The notes: generated from the sequence alone by a model not told the origin. A stretch of 22,565 bases of DNA from Oculatellaceae cyanobacterium bins.114 (GCA_033764315.1 JANRJA010000053.1:1-22565); one strand, 5' to 3'. Positions 2,474 to 20,994 are shown, numbered from the stretch's first letter. A program made the numbers and translations.

Positions 2474-5400
2474 GTGGATCACCCCGTCTCCGATACCCAT
2501 TCAGACTTTACCAAACCGATCCCGCGTGCTTCTCGCCTGCCTAGCCAACGCTGGCACATTGCTGAGCCTCAACCCCAATCGGCCATGCAGTTAGCCCAGA
2601 CAGTTGGCTTATCACCCTTATTGGCGCAGGTGTTGATTAATCGGGGCGTTGATACTTCAGACCGGGCACAGTCTTTTTTAAACCCAGAAACCGATCTGTT
2701 GCCCTCTCCATTAGAGGAGTTTGCCGATCTGCCCACTGCGTTAGAACTGCTGATGTGGGCGATCGCCAACCAACACTACATTGCTATCTGTGGCGACTAT
2801 GATGCCGATGGCATGACCAGCACAGCTCTGTTACTCCGAGCCTTGCGGTTTTTAGGAGCACAGGTCGATTACGCCATTCCCAGTCGCATGAATGAGGGCT
2901 ATGGCATCAACAAGCGAATTGTCGAAGACTTCCACCAGGAAGGGGTGCGGTTGATCTTAACGGTAGACAACGGGATCGCGGCCTATGAGCCGATTGCCCG
3001 TGCCCGTGAGTTAGGCTTAGCCGTGATTGTCACTGACCACCACGATATTCCGGAGAAATTGCCGCCTGCCAATGCCATTCTCAATCCCAAGCTGATCCGA
3101 GAGGCATCCCCTTATCGTGGTGTAGCCGGAGTCGGGGTAGCCTACATTTTGGCGGTGTGTCTAGCGCAATGTTTGAAAAAAACGCAGGATCTCACGGCTC
3201 CACTGATTGAACTGTTTACCCTGGGAACGATCGCGGATCTGGCTCCCTTGACGGGGGTCAATCGTCGCTGGGTGCGTCGGGGGTTGCGCTTGTTGCCCAA
3301 GTCTCGCCTGATTGGGGTGCAGGCGTTGATTCAAGTGGCGGGGTTGAGCAATGAGCGAGATGCGCTTAAACCAGAGGCGATCGGCTTTCGCTTGGGGCCA
3401 CGCATCAATGCGGTGGGACGCATCGCTGACCCGCAGTTAGTGATCGAATTGTTGACCACCAACGACGAAGGGCAAGCGTTGGAACTGGCGATGAAATGTG
3501 AACAGGTCAACCAGTTGCGGCAGCGGTTGTGTGAACTGATTGAGCAAGAGGCGATCGCCTGGTGTGAAACGAGCGGGGTTAACGTTCAACAAGATCAGGT
3601 CTTAGTCGTGGTGCAACCGGAATGGCATCACGGGGTGATTGGCATTGTTGCTTCGCGGCTCGTCGAACGGTATGGTGTGCCCGTGTTTATCGGCACTTAT
3701 GAAGGTGAGGAAAAGACGCATATTCGCGGCTCTGCACGGGGCATTCCTGAATTTAATGTGTTTGAAGCCCTCCAATTTTGCGGCGATATTTTAGGAAAGT
3801 TTGGTGGACACAAGGCAGCAGGTGGTTTCTCACTGGCCGCTGAGAACTTGACTGAGATGCGATCGCGCCTGCGAATCTTTGCCGCGATGAAACTTCAGCC
3901 TCAGCACCTCAAACCCCTGGTCAACATTGACGTAGAGGCAAACTTTGACGAGCTAGATCTCGACCTTTATGAGCAAATCGACCATCTGCATCCCTGTGGC
4001 ATCGAAAACCCCGATCCGGTGTTTTGGACTCCCAACGTGCGGGTGTTAGAGCAAAAGGTAATCGGCAAAGATCGCTCCCATCTCAAGGTCACATTGGCGC
4101 AAGATACGGGGGTGAGAGCATCATCCTTTAAGGCGATCGCTTGGCGATGGGGAGAATATTGCCCCTTGCCCAATCGGCTTGATGTTGCCTATCGGTTGCG
4201 AGTGAATGAGTGGAATGGGGATAAATCTGTCGAGTTAGAACTGGTTGGCGTGCGATTGCCCAGTGAAGAACCGCTAACACACTCCGTTCAGGTTGAGATG
4301 CCTCTGGCAGCAGCGATCGTGCCTCCTACAGAGGTGGAGCCTGCTTTCGTTGAGAGCAGTGCCCCTGAGGAGATGGCCCCTCAAGCAGAACCGCTACCTA
4401 GAGGGGCGATCGCGTCAACAGACGATGAGATGGATGAGACCCAGGCTCTTTTGACCCGATCCGAGTTTCAATTCAGCAATCGCCAATATACGTGCAGTAT
4501 CTCGGTTGTGGATGACCTGCGAGAGTTGCAAATTCGTAATGCAGAAGGGCAGGTGTTAACCGTTCAGCCAGAACACCAACGAGGATTGTTGGGTCAACGT
4601 CGGGAAGAGGCAAAGGAAGTTGATATCTCTCAACCGTTTTATGCCGATCTAATTCAAGCGGCACTGAGAGCGTTAGAAATTGTCGAAAAAGACGAACTAC
4701 TTAAAAAAAAAGATCAACTAATTGCTGAACAAGAACAGCACATTGCACGATTACAACATCAGCTTGATTCGTTTCAACAACAAGCCAGCCAACTCCCTCT
4801 AGAGCCACCCACAGTTCAATCACGGCAAACTAACATGACTGGGGTTGCTGACGCGGTTTCGAGGTCTTATCCTACCTCGCCTATCCTTCGGTCTCATTCC
4901 ACCGTATTTGACCCAGAACAGACTAAAGAAACTCTCAAAACACACCTGGGAGATGCGGTGTGGTATTGCATTGATCAACGCAGTCAAAAAGATTTATATG
5001 CCGCTTACAAGAAGCGCAATAGTCTACAAACTAATACCCTGGCGACTCCCCCAATAGACTATTCTGAGGCTGGGATAAAGTTGATTTTAACGATTGAACG
5101 AGAAGTATTACATCCCTGCTTTAAAGTCCTATATGAGTTTTTGCAAACACAGTCAGAGATACATTCAATTGCTGGAATTGAGTTGGGCAATCGCACGAAA
5201 TATACGCTTAAACAACTGGTTCCACTGATTGATGATCAATGGTCTGTGTTGAGGGACTCGGCTCTGCAAAACCCTAACCGTCCTGATGAAAAGGATCTCT
5301 ATTTTGCTGTGTCTGCTGATGAAGTGGGTGAAGCGGTGAACGAGAGCGATTTTGCCTTTTTAACAAAGTTCTTTGATCAATGGGAACATCCCTTAGCCGA

Positions 5401-5593
5401 TTGGTTGGTGCGAGACTCTAATGCCTCTGCCTCGGCGATCGCCCAGATTGCTCAGTTGCGCGAGCGAGCCGTTGATTCAGATCGGCTGTTGTATGAGTGG
5501 CAATTTGAATATCTGCGAGTCCTGGTCGTGGGTGACACGACGCAGCAAGGGATTTTACAAGCGATTTACAACTCCCGGAAAGGCATACCATAG
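2474..5593 (+). CDS. recJ: Single-stranded-DNA-specific exonuclease RecJ with long C-terminal extension
   Basis: GDYDADG, TVDNGI, TDHH, GTIAD, PRINAVGR, RGSAR and GGHKAAGG motifs in the first ~600 aa; about 440 further residues; GTG start not certain. Confidence 0.95.
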   Translation: MDHPVSDTHSDFTKPIPRASRLPSQRWHIAEPQPQSAMQLAQTVGLSPLLAQVLINRGVDTSDRAQSFLNPETDLLPSPLEEFADLPTALELLMWAIANQHYIAICGDYDADGMTSTALLLRALRFLGAQVDYAIPSRMNEGYGINKRIVEDFHQEGVRLILTVDNGIAAYEPIARARELGLAVIVTDHHDIPEKLPPANAILNPKLIREASPYRGVAGVGVAYILAVCLAQCLKKTQDLTAPLIELFTLGTIADLAPLTGVNRRWVRRGLRLLPKSRLIGVQALIQVAGLSNERDALKPEAIGFRLGPRINAVGRIADPQLVIELLTTNDEGQALELAMKCEQVNQLRQRLCELIEQEAIAWCETSGVNVQQDQVLVVVQPEWHHGVIGIVASRLVERYGVPVFIGTYEGEEKTHIRGSARGIPEFNVFEALQFCGDILGKFGGHKAAGGFSLAAENLTEMRSRLRIFAAMKLQPQHLKPLVNIDVEANFDELDLDLYEQIDHLHPCGIENPDPVFWTPNVRVLEQKVIGKDRSHLKVTLAQDTGVRASSFKAIAWRWGEYCPLPNRLDVAYRLRVNEWNGDKSVELELVGVRLPSEEPLTHSVQVEMPLAAAIVPPTEVEPAFVESSAPEEMAPQAEPLPRGAIASTDDEMDETQALLTRSEFQFSNRQYTCSISVVDDLRELQIRNAEGQVLTVQPEHQRGLLGQRREEAKEVDISQPFYADLIQAALRALEIVEKDELLKKKDQLIAEQEQHIARLQHQLDSFQQQASQLPLEPPTVQSRQTNMTGVADAVSRSYPTSPILRSHSTVFDPEQTKETLKTHLGDAVWYCIDQRSQKDLYAAYKKRNSLQTNTLATPPIDYSEAGIKLILTIEREVLHPCFKVLYEFLQTQSEIHSIAGIELGNRTKYTLKQLVPLIDDQWSVLRDSALQNPNRPDEKDLYFAVSADEVGEAVNESDFAFLTKFFDQWEHPLADWLVRDSNASASAIAQIAQLRERAVDSDRLLYEWQFEYLRVLVVGDTTQQGILQAIYNSRKGIP

Positions 5594-7355: not shown

Positions 7356-8261
7356 ATGAAGCTACTCAATCCCCTGCTTGTTTCTGGAGTGATCTTAAAT
7401 ACTGCTTTGCTGCTTGGAACGCCTGTGTCGGTTGGGTTGAGCCAGCCTCCAACACTGGTGGCTCAGGCTCCCACCGGAGAGAGTGAGCTAAATCGTGGGT
7501 TGCAGTTGATTCGTCAGGGTCAGTTGAATGAGGCGATCGCAGCCTTTCGTCAAGCCACGGCACTCAATCCTGGGCTTGCTCCCGCTTACTACAACTTAGG
7601 GTTGGCACTGCGTCAACAAGGGCAACTCCAGGAAGCGGCAACTGCCTTTTACCAGGCGACCCAGGCAGAACCCCGATTTGCCCTCGCCTATGCTAACCTC
7701 GGAGCCGCTCTGTTAGAAGGCAATAACGTTTCTTTGGCAGGCGATTATTTGCAACGGGCGATCGAACTTGATCCTGACTTGGGACTAGCCTATTACAACC
7801 TGGGGTTGGTGCGAAAACAACAGGGCAACTGGCAACAGGCGATCGATGCCTTTCAGCGGGCGATTCAACTTAGCCCCAATGCACCAGAGCCTCCCTATCA
7901 CCTGGGGTTAGTCTATCAGCAACAACGCCAACAAAACCTGGCTCTGCGTGCCTTTCAACAAGCCATTAGCATTAACCCCAACTACGCCGAAGCTCACTAC
8001 AGTGCTGGGTCGGTTATGTTTGAGCAAGACAACCTGGATGCTGCATTAGAAGCGTTTAGGCGATCGGCTCAAGCCAACTCTAACTATCCCAATGCCTATT
8101 ATGGGGCGGGTCTGGTGTTTCTCCGGCAGGGCAAATACGCCGATGCTCAACAGGTGTTGCAATACGCCAGGGATTTGTTCAACGCACAGGGCAATGCTCA
8201 ATGGGCCGCCAGTGCTCAAGACTTGTTACAACGGGCGCAGAGTTCGGTTGCCCCTCGTTAG
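7356..8261 (+). CDS. Exported TPR-repeat protein
   Basis: ATG at 7356 just after the upstream stop; hydrophobic N-terminus; about 7 TPRs of the A(Y/H)YNLG pattern at 34-aa spacing. Confidence 0.9.
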   Translation: MKLLNPLLVSGVILNTALLLGTPVSVGLSQPPTLVAQAPTGESELNRGLQLIRQGQLNEAIAAFRQATALNPGLAPAYYNLGLALRQQGQLQEAATAFYQATQAEPRFALAYANLGAALLEGNNVSLAGDYLQRAIELDPDLGLAYYNLGLVRKQQGNWQQAIDAFQRAIQLSPNAPEPPYHLGLVYQQQRQQNLALRAFQQAISINPNYAEAHYSAGSVMFEQDNLDAALEAFRRSAQANSNYPNAYYGAGLVFLRQGKYADAQQVLQYARDLFNAQGNAQWAASAQDLLQRAQSSVAPR

Positions 8262-8308: not shown

Positions 8309-8953
8309 ATGTCTCACGTCTTCCTCTCCTATGCTCGTGCCGATGGCAAACCTGCTGCAACTCGTTTGCGGGGTGAATTGGAACGAGTCGGTTTTCAAAT
8401 TTGGCGAGACATCGAAGACATGCAGGGTGGGCAATCCTGGAAAGACCAATTGCGTGAGGCATTGCGAACCGTGCAAGTCGTGGTCGTGTTGCTGACTCCC
8501 GCTGCCGTTGCCTCAAAGTATGTCGAGTGGGAATGGGAAACCGCGCTTACCCTGGACAAACGAGTGATTCCCTTGTTGCTCATGCCCTGTGATGTGCCCA
8601 GTGATTTGAGTCGTTTGCACTATCACAACCTCAGCACCGATCAGGAATATACCCTGGGGTTCGCTGCCCTGATCCGCGATTTGTATTCCCTGACAGCACA
8701 TGTTCCAGGCAAGCCATCTGGATCGGATGCAAGGACTCCATCAGACGAAGAGGGCGATCGCCCTAGTGGGGGTCGTGCTATCTCGATCGGCGGTCACGTC
8801 AGCGGCAGTAATTTAGTGCTTGGTGACGGTAACACAGTTGGTAATAACAATGTGGTGCAGCGAGTGACGCAAACCGGAAAATATAACGTCAATCTGGGAA
8901 CCGCTCAAGGCTTAATTATTGGCGATACAATTCATGACAACGAAGAAGATTGA
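8309..8953 (+). CDS. TIR-domain protein with C-terminal G/N/V/I-rich amyloid-like motifs
   Basis: Start likely ATG 8309 (MSHVFLSYARAD); WRDIEDMQGGQSW, SKYVEWE with putative catalytic Glu, VIPLLL; P/S/D/G linker then low-complexity beta-type tail. Confidence 0.9.
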   Translation: MSHVFLSYARADGKPAATRLRGELERVGFQIWRDIEDMQGGQSWKDQLREALRTVQVVVVLLTPAAVASKYVEWEWETALTLDKRVIPLLLMPCDVPSDLSRLHYHNLSTDQEYTLGFAALIRDLYSLTAHVPGKPSGSDARTPSDEEGDRPSGGRAISIGGHVSGSNLVLGDGNTVGNNNVVQRVTQTGKYNVNLGTAQGLIIGDTIHDNEED

Positions 8954-9066
8954 TCTCTCTCTTGTTAGAGCTATTCTTACCATCTGATCAGACTGAGTAA
9001 GAGGCGATCGCTTCAACCGATTCAATTGTCTGCCAGAATTGAGGAATATCAACGGAGGCTGAGCCA

Positions 9067-9645
9067 ATGGTTACTTCACCCCAACACCCCCTCAGAATGA
9101 CCGTTGAGGAATACCTGGAATGGGAATCTCAGCAAGAGGTTCGTCACGAATATGTTAACGGTGAAGTCTTTGCAGTGATGGGTGGGACGATTCCCCATAA
9201 TGACATTGCGCTCAACCTTTACACGGCGTTGCGCCCTAAAGTGCGATCGCGGAGATGTCGAATCAATGTAGCGGATGTCAAGGTGCAGGTGAATCCTGCT
9301 AGTCCTTACTATTACCCCGATGTGATCATCAGTTGCAACCCACAAGACCTCAATGCTCGTCAGGTGATCCAGCATCCCATCCTGATTGTGGAAGTGCTTT
9401 CTCCTGGCACGGAGGCAAAGGATCGGGGTGAAAAGTTTACCTACTATCAGACAATTCCCAGTTTGCAAGAATACGTGTTGATTGATTCTGAGAAGGTTGC
9501 GGTGGAGTGTTATCGTCGGGGCGAGGGGCGGATGTGGCTCTATTATCCTTACAGCGCAGGAGATGTGATTGCTCTCGGTAGCCTTGAGTTTGAGTGCCCC
9601 ATTGAGTTGCTGTATGAAGGGGTGGTGTTTGAGGAGCCAAGTTAG
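9067..9645 (+). CDS. Uma2 family (PD-(D/E)xK-like) endonuclease
   Basis: MTVEEYLEWE..RHEYVNGEV, YYYPDV, LIVEVLSPGT, LQEYVLID; GGAGG RBS upstream. Confidence 0.93.
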   Translation: MVTSPQHPLRMTVEEYLEWESQQEVRHEYVNGEVFAVMGGTIPHNDIALNLYTALRPKVRSRRCRINVADVKVQVNPASPYYYPDVIISCNPQDLNARQVIQHPILIVEVLSPGTEAKDRGEKFTYYQTIPSLQEYVLIDSEKVAVECYRRGEGRMWLYYPYSAGDVIALGSLEFECPIELLYEGVVFEEPS

Positions 9646-9723
9646 TTGACAGGGCGATCGCCCCATGAGCCATCCTTTACAATGATTGGCAGAGGCAAAA
9701 CGTTTCTCGTGGGAGGCTTGTCT

Positions 9724-10329
9724 ATGATTGCGACCCCTAAACTTCGTCGGTTGACACCACAAGAATATTTTGAGTGGGAAGCCCAGCAAGAGCTACGGTA
9801 TGAGTACTTTGATGGGGAAGTGTTTGCCATGACAGGGGGTTCCCTGCCCCACGGTCGCATTGGCTTGAATGTGAGTTCGTTGCTAAAGTCTCATGTTAGG
9901 GGCAAGGGGTGTATTGTACTCAACTCTGACTGCAAGGTAGGGATTTCTGAAAAAGGACCTTTTACGTATCCGGATGCCAGTGTGAGTTGTGATCAGCGCG
10001 ATCGCACAGCAGAAGACTTTATTCGATTCCCTTGCCTGATTGTCGAAGTGTTGTCTCCTGGCACCGAAGCCTATGACCGGGGTGGAAAATTTGCCCTCTA
10101 CCGTCGTTTGGAAAGTTTGCAAGAATATGTTTTAGTCGGGTCTGAAACGAAGATCGTTGAGGTCTTTCGGCGCAACCAACAGGGGACATGGGTGTTTGTC
10201 CCTTATGGTGAAAGCGATGAGATTGAGTTGACAAGTGTGGGTTTAACGATACCGATGGCGGCAATCTATGAAGATGTGATCCTGGCGCAATCGGAAACCC
10301 AGGAAAGTCCTTTGGCAGAGGAAGGTTGA
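9724..10329 (+). CDS. Uma2 family endonuclease
   Basis: ATG 9724 behind GGAGG; RYEYFDGEVFAM, TYPD, LIVEVLSPGT, LQEYVLV. Confidence 0.93.
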   Translation: MIATPKLRRLTPQEYFEWEAQQELRYEYFDGEVFAMTGGSLPHGRIGLNVSSLLKSHVRGKGCIVLNSDCKVGISEKGPFTYPDASVSCDQRDRTAEDFIRFPCLIVEVLSPGTEAYDRGGKFALYRRLESLQEYVLVGSETKIVEVFRRNQQGTWVFVPYGESDEIELTSVGLTIPMAAIYEDVILAQSETQESPLAEEG

Positions 10330-10342
10330 TCCTGGAAGTGGT

Positions 10343-10406
10343 GGCGATCGCACTTACCCCCAGGTCTGCCACTTCTCGAATCAGTCGCAGATCTGCCATA
10401 CTCACT
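10343..10406. repeat. HIP1-anchored dispersed repeat, copy A
   Basis: GGCGATCGCACTTACCCCCAGGTCTGCCACTTCTC...AGTCGCAGATCTGCCATACTC; 34/35 identical to 11294-11328 and similar to 11968-12033. Confidence 0.85.
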
Positions 10407-10497
10407 GTTTCCGCTCAAGCGATCGCCCCCACGCTTTAACAAATGCACTACAGATGAATTACAACTATTCAATTAGCTAAAACCAGGAGATAGATTT

Positions 10498-10806
10498 GTG
10501 AGTACTCAAATTAGTATCCAAATTGAGAAAACAGAGACAGGCTACTTAGCCTACAGTCCAGAAGTTACAGGTAGTCAAGTGCAAGGTGACTCTTTTGAAA
10601 TTGTTGTTGATGCACTTAAACCAATCATTGGCAGTTTTTTGAAAGCGCAAGAAGGTCGATTCACCAGTACAACAGACAGACCCATCTGGGAAATTGCTCA
10701 GGAAATCACCAGTGATATGACTGAAGAAGAGATTCGGCAACTGCCATCTGATGGCGCAGAACAGCATGATCACTATATCTATGGCATTCCTAAGCGGACA
10801 TTATGA
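10498..10806 (+). CDS. Putative antitoxin (HicB-like N-terminus, C-terminal LPSDGAEQHDHYIYG segment)
   Basis: IEKTETGYLAYSPEV.G..QGDSFE resembles HicB fold; ATGA overlap with downstream PIN gene; AGGAG RBS. Confidence 0.7.
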   Translation: MSTQISIQIEKTETGYLAYSPEVTGSQVQGDSFEIVVDALKPIIGSFLKAQEGRFTSTTDRPIWEIAQEITSDMTEEEIRQLPSDGAEQHDHYIYGIPKRTL

Positions 10807-11213
10807 GAACACTGTTCGCAGATACTTTCTATTGGGTTGCTCTCATCAATCCTGCCGATGATTGGTACAGTCGAGTTCTCAATGTCAGCTCTTCTTTGGG
10901 GCAAATTCAACTGGTCACGACAGATGAAGTATTAACTGAAGTCCTTACCTTTTACTCAGAAGCAGGTTCACGGATGCGACAGCGTACAGTTGCTTTTGTG
11001 GATAATGTTTTGAGTAATACTACTATTCAAGTGATTCAACAGACTCACGATTCCTTCTTGTCTGGCTTGAAACTTTACCGCGATCGCCTTGATAAAGGGT
11101 ATAGTCTCACTGATTGTATATCCATGAATACAATGCAAAACCTGAGTATCACAGAAGTGCTAACCCATGATCAGCACTTCGTTCAAGAAGGGTTCATGAT
11201 TTTATTCAAATAG
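10803..11213 (+). CDS. vapC: PIN-domain VapC-type toxin
   Basis: LFADTFYW, VLTEVL, YSLTDCIS, LTHDQHF acidic PIN motifs; 136 aa. Confidence 0.9.
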   Translation: MRTLFADTFYWVALINPADDWYSRVLNVSSSLGQIQLVTTDEVLTEVLTFYSEAGSRMRQRTVAFVDNVLSNTTIQVIQQTHDSFLSGLKLYRDRLDKGYSLTDCISMNTMQNLSITEVLTHDQHFVQEGFMILFK

Positions 11214-11293
11214 CACATGATCTCAAAATAGAGAATTACTAAATGCCTCAAAAGTAGAACGCGATCGCTCTTTTCTACTTACCACCTCAATAG

Positions 11294-11328
11294 GGCGATC
11301 GCACTTACCTCCAGGTCTGCCACTTCTC
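11294..11328. repeat. HIP1-anchored dispersed repeat, copy B (partial)
   Basis: 34/35 identical to 10343-10377. Confidence 0.85.
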
Positions 11329-11342
11329 AACTAGCATGGAGG

Positions 11343-11909
11343 TTATCTTGCTCCGACTTTTAACCAGCTAAACATCTGCTCTACTGTTAATCTCAAGTCA
11401 ACACCGGGTAAGCAAGGGAGGGGTGCATCTCCGAACAATTCATCAGGTAAGCGATCGGGGCGATAGACTAACACCACTCGCTCATCAGGATCAATCAACC
11501 AACCCATCTTTCCCCCATGACGCAAGCTATGTAAAATCTTGCGCGTCACTTTCATCTGGCTCTGGTCGGGCGATAGAATCTCAATCATCCAGTCGGGTGC
11601 AATGGTGATTCCGGTGCTGGAAATATCGCCATTCTCATCCACAGGAATGTAGGCTTTGCTTAGGACTACTAGATCGGGCACGATCGACTTGCCCCCAACA
11701 GTACACCGCAACTCAGGTAGAGCTTCATAGGCTGAATCGAGTGCATTAATGGCACTGGCAAGACGTAATTGCAGGCGACTATGCTTTCCTCCTGGCATTG
11801 GCTTTTGGATGGCTTCTCCCTGTACAAATTCCCAGGCAGGGGATTCTTCAATATCAGGCAGTCTTAAGAACTGCTCTAGGGTTAAGGGTTGAGATGAGGC
11901 AAGGGTCAT
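11343..11909 (-). CDS. Uma2 family endonuclease
   Basis: LTLEQFL, QKPMPGGKHS, ELRC...SIVPDL, PDWMIEILSPDQ, GWLIDP. Confidence 0.93.
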   Translation of the reverse strand: MTLASSQPLTLEQFLRLPDIEESPAWEFVQGEAIQKPMPGGKHSRLQLRLASAINALDSAYEALPELRCTVGGKSIVPDLVVLSKAYIPVDENGDISSTGITIAPDWMIEILSPDQSQMKVTRKILHSLRHGGKMGWLIDPDERVVLVYRPDRLPDELFGDAPLPCLPGVDLRLTVEQMFSWLKVGAR

Positions 11910-11967
11910 AATGGTGTAAAGTCACACAAACCTCTAATACTCTGGATTTTAACGCTTTTAGAGGGTG

Positions 11968-12033
11968 GGCGATCGCACCCTCACCCTGAGATTTGCGACT
12001 TCTTGAAGCAGTTGCAGATCTTGCATACTCCCT
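11968..12033. repeat. HIP1-anchored dispersed repeat, copy C (diverged)
   Basis: GGCGATCGCAC...AGATTTGCGACTTCTTGAAGCAGTTGCAGATCTTGCATACTC aligns with copy A and contains an imperfect IR. Confidence 0.75.
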
Positions 12034-12034
12034 A

Positions 12035-15000
12035 TCAACGTGAGTGAAATGCTTGATAAAAATCCGGATAGGGCATTGTCTCAGCGCATTTCATCATGAG
12101 TGGATAGAGTTGAGAGAGTTTCTTTGTGCGTAAGTGGCGACGAAGCGATCGTACTATTTGGATCGACACCTGATCACTCATACCGATACTGATATTGTTC
12201 AAAGTCCACACTGCTCTCCAAAAAACATTGTTATCTTGAGTAGTTTCTATTAGTTGAGCTAGTGCCTGAACTATAGTCTCACTGCTTGGATCAATTTTGC
12301 TCAAACTCTTAGCTACGTCATCGATGTTTCCTTGAGCAATTATCAACACTCGTAGCAGTGCCCGGATCGCCGTCTCATTGCCAGGGTCAATTGTATCCAG
12401 GCTCTTGGCTACACTCTTAAGAGTGTATTCATCTTGAGTTGTTTCCAACACTCGTATCAGTGCGTGAATTGCCGTCTCATTACCAACACCGATTTTGCCC
12501 AAGATCTCGGCTGCATCCCTAAGAGTGTGTTTATCTTGAGTCGTTTTTATCAGTTGCACTAGTACTCGAATTGCTGTCTCATTGCCAGGGTCAATTCTGT
12601 ATAAACTCTCGGCTGCATCCCTAAGAGTGTATTTATCTTGAGTCGTTTCCAACACCCGCACCAATGCCCAAATCGCCGTCTCATTACCAGCACCGATTCT
12701 GTCCAAGATCTCGGCTGCTCCCAAAAGAATGTGATCATCTTCAGTGGTTTCTACAAGTTGCATCAGTGCGTGAATTGCCGTCTCATTGCCAGCGCTGATT
12801 CTGCCCAAGATCTCGGCTGCTCCCAAAAGAATGTAATCATCTTCAGTGGTTTCTACAAGTTGCACCAGTGCCTGAATCGCCGTCTCATTACCAGCACCGA
12901 TTATACCCAAGCTCTCGAATGCTTCCCCAAGAATGTGATCATCTTCAGTGGTTTCCAACACCCGTAGCAGTGCCTGAATCGCTGTCTCATTGCTAGGAGC
13001 CATATAACTCAAGATCTCGGCTGCTTCCCGGAGCATGTGATCATCTTCAGTGGTTTCTACAAGTTGCACCAGTGCCCGAATCGCCGTCTCATTGCCAACA
13101 CCGATTTCGCCCAAGCTCTCGAATGCTTTCCCACGAGTGCCTAGATCTTGAGTTGTTTCCAACACCCGTAGCAGTACCCTGATCGCCGTCTCATTACCAG
13201 CACCGATTATACCCAAGGTCTCGACTGCTCTCCAACGCTTTACTAAATCTCTAAATTCCGATCTCTCTTGTTTAGTCATATACTCTGAAAAGATCCCGGA
13301 TAGCATCCGCCGGTTTAATGGCTCTTGAGTTGTTTCCAACACCTGCACCATTGCGCTGATCGCCGTCTCATTACCAGTACCGATTTCGCCCAAGAGCCTG
13401 GCTGCGCTATCATAAGCGATTTCATTTTGAGTGGTTTCCAATACCTGCACTAGTACTCGAATCGCTGTTTCATTGCCAGGATCAATTTCTTCCAAACTCT
13501 CGACTACAATCCTGCGGATATATTGATCTTGAGTAGTTTCCAATACCTGCACTAGTACCTGAATCGCTGTCTTACTACCAGCACCGATTCTGCCCAAGAT
13601 CTTGACCGCGCCCTCAAAGGTGACTATACTTTGAGTGGTTTTCAACACCTGCGCCAGTACTCGAATTGCTCGTCGGGAATCTGTACTGCTGAAGGCGGGA
13701 GCAACAAGATTAATCCAGCTTTGTCTTAACTCATCATCGTAATTCGGTACATAAAAGTTATAAAGATTAAACCAACTTTGTTCTAACCCATCAAAGTCAA
13801 ACGCCCAGTACACCAGTTTATTAACAATCTCATCAGCATGGGTACAATCTCTAAACTCAGCAATCCCTCTGGCTGCCAACAAAAATGCTCGGTCGCTGTA
13901 GAAACCTCCACATCGATCCTTAAATCTCATCATTGACCAAATCAAGGCATCCTTCTCTGACTTGTTCACGTCTTTGCGCCCCAACCACAGCAGAAATACC
14001 TGCTTCCATTGGGGTTCAAAAATGCGATAGGCAATTTTCGCTTCTTTGGCATTACGTGGTTTTGGATTGAGAAAAAAGCGTCCATTGTCGATCGCTAATG
14101 CAGCAAAATATTCTTCAAAAGTCGCGTGATAAAAGGCATATATTGCTTGCATTGGGTCATTTGCATCTACCCCAACTTGGTTCAACCAACCCACTTCTAG
14201 CGCCAGATCCAGAAGAGTTCCCTGTCCTTCTGCTAGAGCTTCGCTCAAAATGCGGCTAACAAATGGATGTCGCAATCGAAAGCGGGTATGGTGTTGATCG
14301 TCCGTATCATCTATTGCTGCGAGAGCAAGCTTCGCTAATGCCTGATTTAATTGTGCTTGCTGTTTGGGGGTAGTTGGAAACTGCTCATGCTTCCACTCAT
14401 AAATGCGATTGACAAACCGTTGATAGAGTTCTGCCTGAGTTTCAGGTAGTTGTCCCTGTTGCAAATACCAGTTAAAGCACAATAGCGTTAACCGCAGCGG
14501 ATTTTTGACCAAATCCCGAATTCGCTCTTTCCCCGACTCCTTTAAAGCCGCACATAATGACTGACCAAGTTCAGCTTTTCTCCGGGGTGCAAACCATTGT
14601 CTGATAAACTGCTCCACTTGATCGGGGTAAGCAAACTCCAGGGTGCGATAGGTGTCAAACTGAGTGAGTGAATTGCGATCGCCATCCCACAAATTCAGCC
14701 GACAAGTCAGCAAAATTTTTGCCTGTTGCAGCCATCCTCCCTCTTGCATTTGGCGTTGAATGTCAGTTAAGGGATTGCCTGAAACCTGCATCTCATCTAA
14801 GCCATCTAGCAGCAGCCAGACTCGACCCTGCTTAAACTGAGCGGCAAAGTTTGCTTTGTCTGCCTGCGAGGGTTCTGCACCTCCCGCCGCTCGAATCACC
14901 CGTTGCAGCCAGCGTTTCTCTAAATAGGTTTCTAACGAGTCGCCCTGCAAATCTGCTAGCGATATCCAAATCACAATTGAGTCTGGAAAGGTTGCCGCTG

Positions 15001-15637
15001 CCCATCGAGCAATTTGTTGCAACAGCGTTGTCTTTCCTGCACCCGGTTCCCCAATAATGGCAACTCGTTTGCCCTGGCTCTTGGGACTCTGCCCCTGCTG
15101 TAAGACCTGCTCCAGAAATTGCTCATGCTCAAATTTCTGAGTGACCTCGACTTCTTCTGCCTCAAATCTCTGGGGCGATCGCTCTTCTAAACCTTCCTGA
15201 TACAATCTCGAACCTTGCTCTGGGGAAACATCCTGCTTCTGGCGCGGTACCTTCTTCCGCTCCACTAGCCCCAACGGTACATACACCTGCTCAACTTGAT
15301 AGGCAATGTCTTCGCCTTTTGTCATCGGGTTGGTCGTTAACTGGAGCCGCTCCTCCAACAGTGTTCGGCTGGTTTGTTGCCAATCAAGTTCGAGTGGTGG
15401 GGATGGCAGTTGCGTTGGCGTAGCCGCTCGGAACGAGCTTCGCAACATATCCCGAATCTCAGTTAACAAGTCAGTGTCTAATCCACTGAGCGTGTCCCCA
15501 ATTGAGACTCCTGTTCCCTCACCCAAGTTGACGTTATATTTGCCATGCTGCTCGACAAACTGAATGATGAGCGATCGCCCATCATTGGTTTTGACCCAGT
15601 TTTGCAGTTCAGCCAACAGTGCGTCGCGGTTCATCAT
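12035..15637 (-). CDS. NLR-like STAND protein: N-terminal amyloid-like motif, NACHT NTPase, HEAT repeats
   Basis: Walker A GEPGAGKTT, Walker B LLLDGLDE, LTCR, NPLRL, F(Y)HATFEEYFAA; C-terminal 34-aa helical repeats. Confidence 0.93.
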   Translation of the reverse strand: MMNRDALLAELQNWVKTNDGRSLIIQFVEQHGKYNVNLGEGTGVSIGDTLSGLDTDLLTEIRDMLRSSFRAATPTQLPSPPLELDWQQTSRTLLEERLQLTTNPMTKGEDIAYQVEQVYVPLGLVERKKVPRQKQDVSPEQGSRLYQEGLEERSPQRFEAEEVEVTQKFEHEQFLEQVLQQGQSPKSQGKRVAIIGEPGAGKTTLLQQIARWAAATFPDSIVIWISLADLQGDSLETYLEKRWLQRVIRAAGGAEPSQADKANFAAQFKQGRVWLLLDGLDEMQVSGNPLTDIQRQMQEGGWLQQAKILLTCRLNLWDGDRNSLTQFDTYRTLEFAYPDQVEQFIRQWFAPRRKAELGQSLCAALKESGKERIRDLVKNPLRLTLLCFNWYLQQGQLPETQAELYQRFVNRIYEWKHEQFPTTPKQQAQLNQALAKLALAAIDDTDDQHHTRFRLRHPFVSRILSEALAEGQGTLLDLALEVGWLNQVGVDANDPMQAIYAFYHATFEEYFAALAIDNGRFFLNPKPRNAKEAKIAYRIFEPQWKQVFLLWLGRKDVNKSEKDALIWSMMRFKDRCGGFYSDRAFLLAARGIAEFRDCTHADEIVNKLVYWAFDFDGLEQSWFNLYNFYVPNYDDELRQSWINLVAPAFSSTDSRRAIRVLAQVLKTTQSIVTFEGAVKILGRIGAGSKTAIQVLVQVLETTQDQYIRRIVVESLEEIDPGNETAIRVLVQVLETTQNEIAYDSAARLLGEIGTGNETAISAMVQVLETTQEPLNRRMLSGIFSEYMTKQERSEFRDLVKRWRAVETLGIIGAGNETAIRVLLRVLETTQDLGTRGKAFESLGEIGVGNETAIRALVQLVETTEDDHMLREAAEILSYMAPSNETAIQALLRVLETTEDDHILGEAFESLGIIGAGNETAIQALVQLVETTEDDYILLGAAEILGRISAGNETAIHALMQLVETTEDDHILLGAAEILDRIGAGNETAIWALVRVLETTQDKYTLRDAAESLYRIDPGNETAIRVLVQLIKTTQDKHTLRDAAEILGKIGVGNETAIHALIRVLETTQDEYTLKSVAKSLDTIDPGNETAIRALLRVLIIAQGNIDDVAKSLSKIDPSSETIVQALAQLIETTQDNNVFWRAVWTLNNISIGMSDQVSIQIVRSLRRHLRTKKLSQLYPLMMKCAETMPYPDFYQAFHSR
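12200..13670 (-). repeat. Intragenic 102-bp (34-aa) tandem HEAT-repeat array, about 13-14 units
   Basis: Marker (C/T)GTCTCATT or a close variant recurs at 12371, 12473, 12575, 12677, 12779, 12881, 12983, 13085, 13187, then 13364, 13466, 13568. Confidence 0.92.
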
Positions 15638-15782
15638 GGGAGTGACTCAAACGCCCAAACTCTTTAGTGCAAGGTAACTCTTTACTTAAGATAAGGCATC
15701 AAGTCTTTAGGAAAACGTTAGAGGCGATCGCCCCATAACTCATACATTACAATTAAGATAACTCCCAGCCATTTTGTTTTCC

Positions 15783-16112
15783 ATGACTCGTCAAGAACTT
15801 GAGCAGCAACTTCTCAGTCTCTCGCTATCTGACAAAGCTGAGATTGTTCAAAGTTTGACTAAAACCCTGAGTATGGGCGACAAGGGAATCACCAAAAAGC
15901 CTGGTGTTTGCGGCGGGGAAGCCTGTATTGCCGGAACCCGCATTGCCGTTTGGCTCTTGGTCGAAGCGCAGCAGCTTGGCATTCGGGAAGCTCAACTCTT
16001 GCAGGACTATCCTCATATTACGGCTGCCGATCTGGTTAATGCCCGGGCATATGCTGAAGCCCATCCAGAGGAGATTGCTGCTGCCATTCTTGCTAACAAC
16101 GAAGTTGCCTAG
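15783..16112 (+). CDS. DUF433-type antitoxin, copy 1
   Basis: ITKKPGVCGGEACIAGTRIAVW..LLQDYPHITAADL. Confidence 0.88.
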   Translation: MTRQELEQQLLSLSLSDKAEIVQSLTKTLSMGDKGITKKPGVCGGEACIAGTRIAVWLLVEAQQLGIREAQLLQDYPHITAADLVNARAYAEAHPEEIAAAILANNEVA

Positions 16113-16115
16113 CGG

Positions 16116-16256
16116 ATGGCACGGCTGTATGTAGATGAGCAGTTTCCACGGGAAGTGAGCGATCGCCCATCATTTGACAAATGGTTACGCTCCTACGTTG
16201 GCAGCAGAACAAACGAATTCCAGTTAAAGTCTAAGAGAGAGGCAATCTCAATGTAA
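16116..16256 (+). pseudogene. Truncated DUF5615 (PIN-like) toxin remnant
   Basis: Translates MARLYVDEQFPREV, matching MAKLYADEQFPRLV of 16616-16954; similarity is lost at HIP1 16159-16166 and the frame stops after 46 codons. Confidence 0.8.
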
Positions 16257-16270
16257 AGGCAATCGTAGAC

Positions 16271-16612
16271 ATGACCCTCAAAGAGTTAGAAACCCAACTA
16301 CTGGCTTTAAACCCAGTAGAAAAAGCGGAAATCATTCAGGTTCTGACCCAGAGCTTGGGTAATGGCTCACGAGGAATTACAAAAACCCCTGGAGTGATGG
16401 GAGGAGATGCCTGTATTGCAGACACTCGCCTTCCAGTTTGGCTGTTTGTCAGTCTACGTCACCAAGGAGCAACGGATGCTGAGCTGTTCAATGCCTATCC
16501 CCAGCTTACGGCGGCTGATTTGGTGAACGTCTGGGCATATGCAGAAGCTTATCCAGACGAAATTGAGACGGCTTTGCAAGAACAGGAAGATGCAATACGG
16601 GAAGACCTTTAG
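16271..16612 (+). CDS. DUF433-type antitoxin, copy 2
   Basis: ITKTPGVMGGDACIADTRLPVW..YPQLTAADL; paralogue of 15783-16112. Confidence 0.88.
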   Translation: MTLKELETQLLALNPVEKAEIIQVLTQSLGNGSRGITKTPGVMGGDACIADTRLPVWLFVSLRHQGATDAELFNAYPQLTAADLVNVWAYAEAYPDEIETALQEQEDAIREDL

Positions 16613-16615
16613 AGC

Positions 16616-16954
16616 ATGGCAAAGTTATATGCAGACGAGCAGTTTCCTCGCCTTGTTGTAAAGTGTTTGCGTAGCTTTGGTCATGATGTTTTAACCGTTC
16701 AGGAGTCAGGAAACGCTGGATTTTCTGACCCACACGTTTTAGAATTTGCGATCGCTAATGAGCGTATTGTTCTGACTTTAAACCGACGTGATTTTAAGCG
16801 ATTACATCAGTTGCAGCCAAATCATGCTGGGATTATTGTTTGTACTGAAGACAGAGACAGTGAAAGATTTGCAACTCGTATCCATGAGGCGATTGTACTT
16901 GAGGAATCCCTACAAGGTAAGCTGATTCGAGTTGTGCGCCCCAATTTACAGTAG
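16616..16954 (+). CDS. DUF5615 family PIN-like toxin
   Basis: LYADEQFP, GHDVLTV, SDPHVL, RIVLTLNRRDF, HAGII; 3 bp after the DUF433 gene. Confidence 0.88.
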   Translation: MAKLYADEQFPRLVVKCLRSFGHDVLTVQESGNAGFSDPHVLEFAIANERIVLTLNRRDFKRLHQLQPNHAGIIVCTEDRDSERFATRIHEAIVLEESLQGKLIRVVRPNLQ

Positions 16955-20053: not shown

Positions 20054-20572
20054 ATGAAGGGTGGCAACAAGTATGAGCCGCTGTTGAACTACTTACGTCG
20101 GAGCGATCGCCCTGAGATAACCCTGACCTTTACCGAGATTGAAACCATTATTGGAGATGTGTTGCCTGCCTCGGCGCGTCGCCAAAAAGCCTGGTGGAGC
20201 AATCGTACCAAAGGAGCGTTGCAAGCTTCTGCCTGGATGCTTGCTGATTACCTGGTAGAGGCGATCGACATTGACCACGAAAGCGTCACCTTTCGCAAGC
20301 CCTCTACTGAATATGCAGTGCAACGGGTCGGTGACACCGTATTGTGGAATGCGGAATTGATTAAAGCCCTACGGCGATATATGGGGCTGTCGCAGGTCGA
20401 ATTTGCCCACAAGCTGGGAGTTCGGCAACAAACCGTCAGCGATTGGGAGACCAGTGTATATGACCCTCGTTTATCGACTTCTAAATATCTCACTCTGGTT
20501 GCAGAGCAAGCAGGGTTTAAGTATGGACACAACAACCTAACTTCCTCAAAAGCATCCGAAGACGAATCATAA
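20054..20572 (+). CDS. XRE-family HTH regulator with an N-terminal DUF7662-like domain
   Basis: KYEPLLNYL..ITLTFTEIE..LPASA..WWSN; C-terminal IKALRRYMGLSQVEFAHKLGVRQQTVSDWE. Confidence 0.85.
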   Translation: MKGGNKYEPLLNYLRRSDRPEITLTFTEIETIIGDVLPASARRQKAWWSNRTKGALQASAWMLADYLVEAIDIDHESVTFRKPSTEYAVQRVGDTVLWNAELIKALRRYMGLSQVEFAHKLGVRQQTVSDWETSVYDPRLSTSKYLTLVAEQAGFKYGHNNLTSSKASEDES

Positions 20573-20578
20573 TAGCTA

Positions 20579-20607
20579 TTTACATAATACACGCTAGCGG
20601 TTAATCT
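20579..20607 (+). promoter_or_regulatory. Sigma70-like promoter with palindrome in the spacer
   Basis: TTTACA-N17-TAATCT; CGCTAGCG at 20592-20599. Confidence 0.5.
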
Positions 20608-20715
20608 GTCAGAATAAATCTGATGGTGGTTTGGTGTTGGCGCATTCCATGCCTTTAATACCGATCGAGTCCATCGGTCTCTAATGTTCAACAACTGCCG
20701 ATAGGTTGATTACTT

Positions 20716-20994
20716 ATGCATAGCGATGTCTCAATTAGCTGCACTACTGGCTTTACCCCTTCTCCGACTCCGCTTGCCAGTCCTCTGACCGGGTCTCTGA
20801 CAGACAAAGAACCCCCCAACCGCGAATCTCTGCGAGTGCTGGTGATTGGTTCACGTAGAGGGGTCACTAGCACGATTCATGCCTTACACCGCTTGGGGTT
20901 TGCTGAAGTAAGAGAATGGAGTCCGTTGTTGCCTGCTCCGACTCCTGGAGAAGTGATGAGCATTTTGACTCGCTATCTTTTGACAGATGCTTAA
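20716..20994 (+). CDS. Small hypothetical protein
   Basis: Globular-looking core LRVLVIGSRRGV..IHALHRLGFAEVREWS..GEVMSILTR, between a promoter and a strong hairpin; resembles a cyanobacterial family from memory. Confidence 0.7.
   Translation: MHSDVSISCTTGFTPSPTPLASPLTGSLTDKEPPNRESLRVLVIGSRRGVTSTIHALHRLGFAEVREWSPLLPAPTPGEVMSILTRYLLTDA

Follow-up and report, generated by a model that had tools for sequence, protein, structure and literature searches.

A candidate NACHT–TIR immune-type pair in an Oculatellaceae cyanobacterium, possibly wired by a portable EAD10-core tag

A TIR-domain protein and a NACHT-HEAT protein encoded in a 22,565-nucleotide stretch of DNA from Oculatellaceae cyanobacterium bins.114 (GCA_033764315.1, JANRJA010000053.1:1-22565; hereafter the window) carry the same short tag, and because both carry this EAD10-core tag, the sensor probably switches on the TIR protein through it. 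The locus is best explained as an immune-type circuit of two parts that a portable tag connects, an explanation given roughly an even chance of being right. The narrower proposal, that NACHT sensor and TIR are coupled through a modular, exchangeable tag by which effectors are recruited in trans, is considered fairly likely from sequence comparison, as is the origin that belongs to it, in which a TIR head would have acquired a tail of the caspase type and replaced the caspase opposite the NACHT protein.

The TIR_2 protein gene (8309..8953, + strand; 214 aa) encodes a TIR domain (aa 4-121), a variable linker, and a two-motif tail; its start is set at the Met at 8309, following the database record and the orthologs, and the ORF lister also offers an upstream ATG at 8201. 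The gene for the 1200-residue EAD10(short)-NACHT-HEAT-NCC-H protein, in which HEAT_2, NACHT, EAD10, and NCC-H all exceed the Pfam cut-offs, lies at 12035..15637 on the minus strand. The coordinates given for both reading frames and both motifs in an earlier, sequence-only reading of this DNA are confirmed. The two genes are convergent, and their ends are 3.1 kb apart. That reading placed five Uma2/TA genes between them; the count is correct, and the content is three Uma2 genes, one gene with no Pfam match, and one PIN gene below the cut-off. The Uma2-family genes are located at 9067..9645 (+; Pfam Uma2 E 3e-36), at 9646..10329 (+; E 6e-40), where the true start is probably further downstream, and, downstream of the NACHT gene, at 11343..11909 (-; E 1e-28). 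A counterpart of the first, 80% identical, sits within a caspase-tail island of another genome (G038), and a counterpart of the second, 69% identical, sits between the NACHT and caspase genes of Baaleninema. A small gene with no match in Pfam or NCBIfam (10498..10806, +) overlaps the PIN/VapC-like gene (10803..11213, +; Pfam PIN E 2e-4, below cut-off) and, judging by its position, is a probable antitoxin. Promoter and terminator scans returned counts equal to the shuffle level, and PADLOC and NCBIfam gave no system-level match, with weak domain-level matches for the NACHT protein.

The TIR domain is recognized by Pfam TIR_2 (E 7e-26), and the structure model of the protein has a pLDDT of about 90 in the core and under 50 in the tail; its best Foldseek matches are TIR domains, such as those of TRR-2, SARM1, and SPARTA. 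The putative catalytic glutamate, Glu75 (8531..8533, +), is the second E of VEWE and is invariant in all 36 aligned sequences, in agreement with the earlier reading; its catalytic role is one that we assume from where it sits in the TIR alpha-C helix. The TIR fold and the conserved glutamate of catalytic TIR NADases are both present in sequence and model, and NAD+ cleavage is the putative activity.

The tail consists of 62% G/N/Q/V/I and 10% K/P/L, and contains two motifs. The first (aa 155-177, nt 8771..8839, +) is BASS6-like, a likeness seen by eye to entries of cluster C09 in the Dyrka 2021 data set, with C09 equated to BASS6 from family sizes. Its own profile, built from 37 relatives, finds it with E 4e-9, and the next genome match has E 0.04; the TIR tail is the only copy found in the genome (90.7% complete), and the profile search revealed no NLR-side partner there. 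This motif had escaped the sequence-only reading. The second (aa 184-207, nt 8858..8929, +) is a BASS3-related EAD10 beta core without flanking helices, which aligns with Pfam EAD10 model positions 37-64 and scores just under the cut-off of 24.1 bits on the protein (23.9 bits) and over it in the genome search (25.8 bits). It is closest to caspase tails: the distal tail shares 34 of 46 residues with these, versus at most 20 of 46 with TIR proteins paired with protein X (described below), and the window's TIR protein has the appearance of a caspase-type tail fitted with a TIR head. The same tail is found in an 80%-identical TIR ortholog (P0002).

The second protein has the NACHT domain, intact Walker motifs, and C-terminal repeats of a bacterial NLR. 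Its N-terminal motif (aa 26-49, nt 15491..15562, -) is an EAD10 beta core between two helices, within a Pfam EAD10 match over aa 8-61 (33.1 bits against a cut-off of 24.1), and consists of 54% G/N/Q/V/I and 8% K/P/L. The NACHT NTPase domain (aa 191-350, nt 14588..15067, -) retains Walker A (aa 196-203) and Walker B (D278 and D281), and the internally similar HEAT repeats (12344..13228, -; 8.7 copies of a 102-nt unit with 75% matches) form the presumed ligand-sensing region. The protein is an NLR-like sensor with variable HEAT repeats that lacks an enzymatic effector and has the EAD10 tag in the enzyme's place; in its close relatives, trypsin-like or other enzymes occupy the tag's position (Rosetta-stone cases). 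ESM Atlas returned no usable match for aa 1-75, and solved structures gave no match below E 0.18 for the tagged end of either protein.

The two 24-residue motifs have 16 residues in common, and their coding sequences agree at 42 of 72 nucleotides. Ten of the 16 identical residues are encoded by different, synonymous codons, a kind of difference that the earlier reading had noted for the GKYNVNLG block, so recent duplication is ruled out as the origin of the match. A motif profile built from 129 other copies and searched against 153,895 stop-to-stop segments of the genome gave exactly three matches (E 1e-9, 9e-8, and 1e-6; next segment E 8.9), the third being an EAD10-NACHT-HEAT-TIR gene on another contig (C228). 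The match exceeds chance, and the presence of only three copies in the genome, two of them at this locus, argues for coupling. Sites placed at random would lie within 6.64 kb of one or the other NACHT copy in 0.4% of cases, a figure that ignores the clustering of defence genes. By identity, the window motifs are reciprocal best matches (first of 86 N-side and first of 44 C-side 24-mers), with a lead of one residue; by BLOSUM score they rank 4 of 86 and 2 of 44. The exact GKYNVNLG block, which had been given special weight, is real but mostly reflects the family consensus. The motifs are terminal, as previously placed, lying at aa 26-49 of 1200 in the NACHT protein and aa 184-207 of 214 in the TIR protein.

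These profile matches identify the shared tag as the EAD10 (Pfam PF19954) beta core, as the earlier reading had guessed, with terminal copies on a core NTPase and on an enzymatic effector at the same locus. At the sequence level, it grades into catalogued BASS3/RHIM-like motifs: the motif pattern also finds two motifs identical to BASS3 entries (C03_s049 and C03_s134), and one Bell-type tail matches both RHIM (over the cut-off) and EAD10 (weakly). The general features of BASS motifs are also present, namely an N-terminal copy on the NLR and a C-terminal copy on the effector, a gene distance within the 5 kb used by the BASS authors, a length of about 25 aa, and a composition rich in G/N/Q/V/I and poor in K/P/L. 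Of the earlier description as RHIM/BASS-like, the overlap with BASS3 sequences stands, but the likeness to RHIM was overstated. In the window copies, Ile and Ser occupy the Gln position of the G-phi-Q-phi-G signature at the motif's centre, a signature present in 7 of the 86 N-side and 5 of the 44 C-side relatives, and Pfam RHIM had no match in the window at E 0.5. An RHIM-signature profile gave E 3 for the TIR tail and did not place the NACHT copy among its best ten matches; this profile is thin, comprising 12 sequences from actinobacterial, non-cyanobacterial loci, and its source search found matches in no more than 3 of 301 genomes. Because the profile has no significant match in the window, strict membership of BASS3 was rejected. 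A viral scan for the motif returned five loci, and the four fitting the pattern lie mid-protein in one unrelated family; no decoy was seen.

Across cyanobacteria, the predicted association of the tag with both sensors and effectors is borne out. In Baaleninema simplex, a NACHT protein 72% identical over aa 1-330 faces a caspase with the same tag, and the two genes are convergent with a Uma2 gene between them, as in the window. An unbiased scan of 401 genomes turned up nine other C-terminal copies, seven of which are followed immediately downstream by a tagged gene. Motif type agrees in 21 of 22 pairs, and neighbouring copies are more alike than shuffled pairs (10.2 versus 9.1 of 20 residues; p 0.01-0.03, cyanobacteria only, with one of 19 pairs, L217, left out), in comparisons whose pairs were hand-picked, partly by the same profiles, and whose related members are not independent.

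The usual partner of this TIR family is not a NACHT protein but the unnamed phycobiliprotein-like protein X, a pairing with a non-NLR protein that the sequence-only reading had missed. TIR orthologs lie directly upstream of EAD10-X (L195/L218, L216, and L217) or are fused to X (L200 and L222; 4 of 17 X relatives), and the fusions lack both tags, another Rosetta-stone case. No EAD10-NACHT neighbour was found at the TIR ortholog loci examined, which came from eight genomes and covered six of the nine closest metagenome loci. ESM Atlas provided only a weak phycobilisome lead for X; a BASS6-like start of X read by eye at one locus (L219) was dropped, as the profile gives it 1.2 bits. This raises the alternative that the window TIR is an orphan or serves another partner, its cognate X having been lost or left unassembled, and that its proximity to the NACHT gene arises only from the tendency of Uma2/TA islands to collect such genes. 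In line with this, neither tblastn nor a 53-sequence profile found X in this genome, three orthologs with a BASS6-only tail have no tagged neighbour, and an unrelated caspase-MoxR island in G038 has the same Uma2 genes on its flanks. The caspase-like character of the distal tail points the other way, as caspases of that kind face this NACHT type in Baaleninema, and the reading frame and Glu75 are intact and the tail is kept in P0002; the orphan explanation is rather improbable. Less probable still is that the coupling holds but the TIR domain makes a signal (a cyclic ADP-ribose isomer, Thoeris-like) for another effector instead of draining NAD+. The protein is a stand-alone TIR without a death domain and has weak ThsB-type matches (Pfam ThsB_TIR E 1e-5; PADLOC ThsB), but no Thoeris-type receiver occurs among the window genes scanned, and the interchangeability of TIR with DUF4062, caspase, trypsin, patatin, and phosphoesterase domains in X fusions points to a terminal effector.

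If NACHT–TIR coupling holds, analogy to NWD2/HET-S, BASS3, and Bab/Agp moderately favours an amyloid step. A ligand bound to the HEAT repeats would cause the NACHT protein to oligomerize, the clustered NACHT tags would form a cross-beta nucleus onto which the TIR tails would add, and the crowded TIR domains would cleave NAD+, leading to cell arrest or death in a putative abortive infection; the EAD10-NACHT-HEAT-TIR protein may also feed the window TIR. The same coupling could be achieved without amyloid if EAD10 were a small folded alpha/beta adaptor onto which the TIR beta core docks by strand addition, creating a finite NACHT–TIR complex. EAD10 has been predicted to be a mixed alpha+beta domain, and EADs to be homotypic adaptors (Kaur 2020, PMC7159879); the RHIM Gln is absent, and most N-side copies, that of the window NACHT among them, have conserved helices on either side of the core. 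However, effector-side and some N-terminal copies lack these helices, the distinct BASS6-like motif is likewise preceded by a helical hairpin, and helix-free copies of both motifs exist. The overlap of the EAD10 core with catalogued BASS3 sequences likewise argues against a folded adaptor, as does, weakly, the model of NACHT aa 6-54, with a pLDDT under 50 and no confident fold despite a 68-sequence alignment; this alternative is unlikely, though less so than the two above. Tentatively, and as one joint reading, EAD10 may be an amyloid motif guarded by helices and belonging to the BASS3/RHIM lineage rather than a globular adaptor, forming with the BASS6-like motif a cyanobacterial plug-in code by which sensors (NACHT, nSTAND, VMAP, and protein X) switch on soluble enzymes; the TIR protein would then be a dual-input, amyloid-gated NADase, templated by either motif class and formed through recombination within the first, shared motif.

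In the cited literature, an amyloid signalling function in bacteria has been shown only for a membrane-targeting effector (Bab/Agp), and a 214-residue TIR protein with a 24-residue tag and an NAD+ read-out makes it cheap to ask whether templated amyloid assembly gates an enzyme. The pair also bears on whether the EAD10 adaptor and BASS motifs are one thing, and the comparison reveals effectors and sensors swapped around the tag, with the phycobiliprotein-like domain as a sensor-like partner in the network.

As in EAD-coupled conflict systems, one copy of the domain resides on a core NTPase and one on an enzyme, and Pfam EAD10 is found on both window proteins; the window differs in its effector, a TIR that has the beta core alone together with a second motif, and in its convergent gene order with a spacing of about 3 kb. 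The portions of the Kaur 2021 supplement (PMC8195603) consulted list CASPASE+EAD10 upstream of EAD10+nSTAND1 and an EAD10+NACHT, with no TIR+EAD10 row among the EAD10 entries examined; the Kaur 2020 supplements examined hold no EAD10 rows, and neither paper, in the parts covered, calls EAD10 an amyloid motif. According to Dyrka 2020 (bioRxiv 10.1101/2020.01.06.895854), TIR2 proteins with BASS motifs adjoin NLRs, and BASS motifs are biased to G/N/Q/V/I, matching the composition of the TIR tail. The earlier interpretation is partly supported overall: the EAD10 assignment, motif placement, catalytic Glu, and sensor–effector association hold, whereas the RHIM-likeness, the weight on GKYNVNLG, and the novelty were overstated, the last because EAD10 caspase/STAND wiring and TIR2-BASS-NLR pairs had been described in Kaur 2021 and Dyrka 2020, respectively. 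The window pair resembles BASS3/BASS6 pairs in its N-terminal NLR copy, C-terminal effector copy, motif length, and composition, and the data set (PMC8086366) overlaps it in C03 and C09 entries, one C09 entry having both motifs in tandem. It differs in lacking the central Gln, in having the NLR-side copy between helices, HEAT instead of TPR/WD repeats, and two motif families in one tail, and in being neither adjacent nor collinear, whereas 91% of published BASS pairs are collinear and the majority directly adjoin, a contrast that counts against the proposed circuit. BASS3 peptides have been reported to form fibrils, and BASS11 controls abortive infection. Ibarlosa et al. (bioRxiv 10.1101/2024.11.07.622273) describe Bab/Agp as an experimental, antiphage case of amyloid sensor–effector coupling in bacteria, and BASS11 as occurring also on TIR, CHAT, and NACHT proteins; Agp belongs to the TGP class, first found through EAD10. 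Compared by description rather than by BASS11 sequence, Bab/Agp differs in its effector, a membrane-targeting Bell-like domain, and in its sensor, TPR-GreA/B-PIN. Bacterial NACHT proteins (Kibby et al., bioRxiv 10.1101/2022.07.19.500537) share the tripartite effector-NACHT-repeat layout, include HEAT sensors and EADs, and are common in cyanobacteria, but the word "amyloid" does not occur in that text. The wiring principle and TIR-BASS pairs are thus already published, and the TIR version of EAD10 wiring is put forward here as a candidate from sequence comparison.

The TIR gene (8309-8953, plus strand) and the NACHT-HEAT gene (12035-15637, minus strand) lie in a window that makes up the entire contig C202 of a 6.6-Mb source genome, which is 90.7% complete and is cyanobacterial by its homolog names and its own phycocyanin genes. 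The 24-residue tag shared by the TIR (aa 184-207) and the NACHT (aa 26-49) is identical at 16 residues, as the sequence-only reading had stated; the two coding segments agree at 42/72 nt, and 10 of the 16 identical residues use different codons. The same reading correctly placed five Uma2 or toxin-antitoxin genes between the partners, namely three Uma2 genes, one probable antitoxin gene and one PIN gene, and its putative catalytic glutamate, Glu75, is invariant in 36/36 aligned sequences. The predicted structure of the window TIR is a TIR fold, the Walker motifs of the NACHT are intact, and the HEAT region is built of a 102-nt repeat (8.7 copies, 75% identity). Two DUF433 genes and a DUF5615 (PIN-like) gene lie upstream of the NACHT (15774-16954), and the NACHT is therefore flanked on both sides by toxin-antitoxin-type genes. 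The window also holds an IS200-like (Y1) transposase-type gene with a Pfam match below the cut-off (184-726), a RecJ gene whose product extends about 440 C-terminal residues past the OB domain, with no significant Pfam match in the extension (2474-5593), and a DUF7662-HTH_3 gene beside a small gene lacking a Pfam match (20054-20994).

The suspicion that the tag belongs to EAD10 proved right, since Pfam EAD10 scores over its cut-off on NACHT aa 8-61 and at the cut-off on TIR aa 184-211. A profile search of the source genome found three copies: the window TIR, the window NACHT and one on contig C228, where an EAD10-NACHT-HEAT gene carries its own C-terminal TIR (L001:8372-11749), followed by a short TIR-like fragment (L001:7189-7518). 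EAD10 matches occur in 37/401 genomes of the class. Searching the genome collection by pattern produced at least 131 loci, from which L102, overlapping duplicates and chance hits to other proteins were then removed.

Tagged effectors and tagged sensors tend to be neighbors. By reading of the rows, an unbiased class scan contained 13 matches to the core of the EAD10 model alone, of which 10 are C-terminal (the window TIR included), two N-terminal and one internal. The predicted genomic association was borne out in 7/9 of the other C-terminal copies, which have a tagged gene directly downstream; 2/9 have none within 8 kb. When 22 hand-picked effector-neighbor pairs were scored for motif type, neighbors with the EAD10 core accompanied effectors with the EAD10 core in 16/16 cases and neighbors with a BASS6-like motif accompanied effectors with that motif in 5/5, while one pair scored on one side alone. 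Neighbors resemble each other somewhat more closely than shuffled pairs do (10.2 vs 9.1 identities of 20; 18 pairs), with p 0.02-0.03 in 11 cyanobacterial pairs free of near-duplicates; related sequences in this test are not independent, and its profiles derive from overlapping data. Ranked by identity within a set of 86 N-side and 44 C-side 24-mers, the two window copies are each other's best match, with a lead of one residue; ranked by BLOSUM score, they are not.

The distal tail of the window TIR is identical to caspase tails at 34/46 positions and to other TIRs at no more than 20/46, except for its 80%-identical ortholog P0002; in the head and the opening half of the first motif, the protein resembles TIRs. 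Caspases with such tails have heads 55-73% identical to the caspase of Baaleninema simplex. The simplest history would have a caspase tail joined to a TIR head, at a NACHT locus, through crossover within the first motif, which the two share. Baaleninema simplex has the same unusual layout: its NACHT, the closest relative (72%, aa 1-330), stands opposite a caspase with a C-terminal core, and between the two lie one small gene and a Uma2 gene that is 69% identical to the second Uma2 gene of the window. In genome G038, a caspase bearing the same two-motif tail is followed downstream by counterparts of all three window Uma2 genes (about 80% identical), and thus these Uma2 genes travel with such islands. 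Across the HEAT repeats of the Baaleninema NACHT, the assembly contains N runs owing to repeat likeness (L209:9700-12500), which suggests homogenization.

At TIR aa 155-177, the first tail motif is similar to cluster C09 of Dyrka 2021, which by family size would be BASS6; one C09 entry carries the BASS6-like motif and the EAD10 core in tandem. In TIR orthologs the linker varies, and the tail holds both motifs, the first alone or the second alone. At the N-terminus of close NACHT relatives stands the EAD10 core, a helical hairpin plus BASS6-like motif, or an enzyme, for example trypsin. A profile search of the source genome, at its 90.7% completeness, revealed no BASS6-like partner. A 135-aa protein in G043 (L201:14844-15251) joins a hairpin and BASS6-like motif to an EAD10 core, and is possibly a converter between the two tag classes. 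One island, L308 (G221:C1:1366000-1385900), combines several NACHT genes, tagged with one class or the other, with a gene for protein X and a caspase whose tail is BASS6-like.

The description of the tag as RHIM/BASS-like holds for its position and make-up, which are those of BASS motifs, and does not extend, in these searches, to membership of BASS3: the central Gln is absent in both window copies, Pfam RHIM does not match them, and a RHIM-signature profile of 12 sequences reaches the TIR tail at a non-significant E of 3. Two Bell-type C-terminal copies, in L147 and L086, are letter-identical to the Dyrka 2021 training entries C03_s049 and C03_s134, and C03 is probably BASS3 from its family size and signature. 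Because of these identities, and because the Bell-type tail of L130 passes the RHIM cut-off with a weak EAD10 score besides and that of L147 scores weakly for EAD10, the EAD10 core and BASS3 form one continuum, with the window copies at its far end.

TIR domains have NADase activity that depends on clustering. The NACHT most likely uses the shared tag to recruit the TIR, and, given such coupling, it is rather probable that recruitment would proceed by templated cross-beta assembly of the tags; the clustered TIR domains would then cleave NAD+. A rival explanation regards EAD10 as a folded adaptor. In the portions available, Kaur 2020 (PMC7159879), which defines the EADs, calls EAD10 alpha+beta. 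In a scan of 93 motif-bearing ORFs (7 from earlier loci; 8 of the 51 loci L109-L159 covered), N-terminal copies among the matches listed are mostly helix-helix-core-helix, on NACHT, nSTAND1, VMAP, WD40, TPR, CHAT and GUN4 proteins, and C-terminal copies are cores without helices, on caspases, one CHAT protein and small Bell-type proteins. Both tagged ends of the window pair have pLDDT under 50 in the predicted models, which is compatible with disordered monomers and is no proof of them.

Other rivals make the TIR a signal maker, or an orphan. TIR orthologs do not partner NACHTs: no EAD10-NACHT neighbor was found at the ortholog loci examined (8 genomes; 6 of the 9 closest metagenome loci). Orthologs instead lie directly upstream of protein X in L195/L218 (probably one organism), L216, L217 and L219, and X starts with the EAD10 core in all of these save L219; in L200 and L222, TIR and X are fused into one untagged protein. 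The 17 close relatives of X comprise 11 with EAD10, four TIR fusions and two fragments. Protein X (L216:1106-2128, L218:3127-4122, L222:10001-11179; proteins P0199-P0298) forms 87 clusters at 50% identity, and its helical domain of about 250 aa is weakly phycobiliprotein-like in the C-terminal half. It is either fronted by EAD10, BASS6-like or EAD4 tags or fused to TIR, caspase, CHAT, trypsin, DUF4062, patatin or phosphoesterase domains (30 scanned out of many fusions to other enzymes or adaptors). Neither tblastn nor a profile search found X in the source genome. X may serve cyanobacterial conflict systems as a sensor linked to photosynthesis.

Recruitment of the TIR through the tag belongs to a published scheme. 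Portions of the supplements of Kaur 2021 (PMC8195603) list CASPASE+EAD10 next to EAD10+nSTAND1, and EAD10 rows were not found in two supplements of Kaur 2020. Dyrka 2020 (bioRxiv 10.1101/2020.01.06.895854) names, in the part available, TIR2 and CHAT among BASS-bearing effectors, and its figures or tables may include the window TIR family; the C03 and C09 entries come from Dyrka 2021 (PMC8086366, likewise available in part). Ibarlosa 2024 (bioRxiv 10.1101/2024.11.07.622273), in the portion available, demonstrates abortive infection under amyloid control, and further work consulted includes Kibby (bioRxiv 10.1101/2022.07.19.500537), PMC13506858, PMC12261475 and PMC10907252. A literature search, with subscription journals mostly outside its scope, found no paper calling EAD10 an amyloid motif or putting an amyloid-gated bacterial TIR to the test, and word checks in two Kaur texts found no description of protein X. 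The window locus is a real, intact case of EAD10/BASS-type wiring, the principle of which is already published; what is new in detail is that the TIR effector sits on a two-motif tail of caspase type, that the convergent arrangement is shared with Baaleninema, and that X occurs as a partner.
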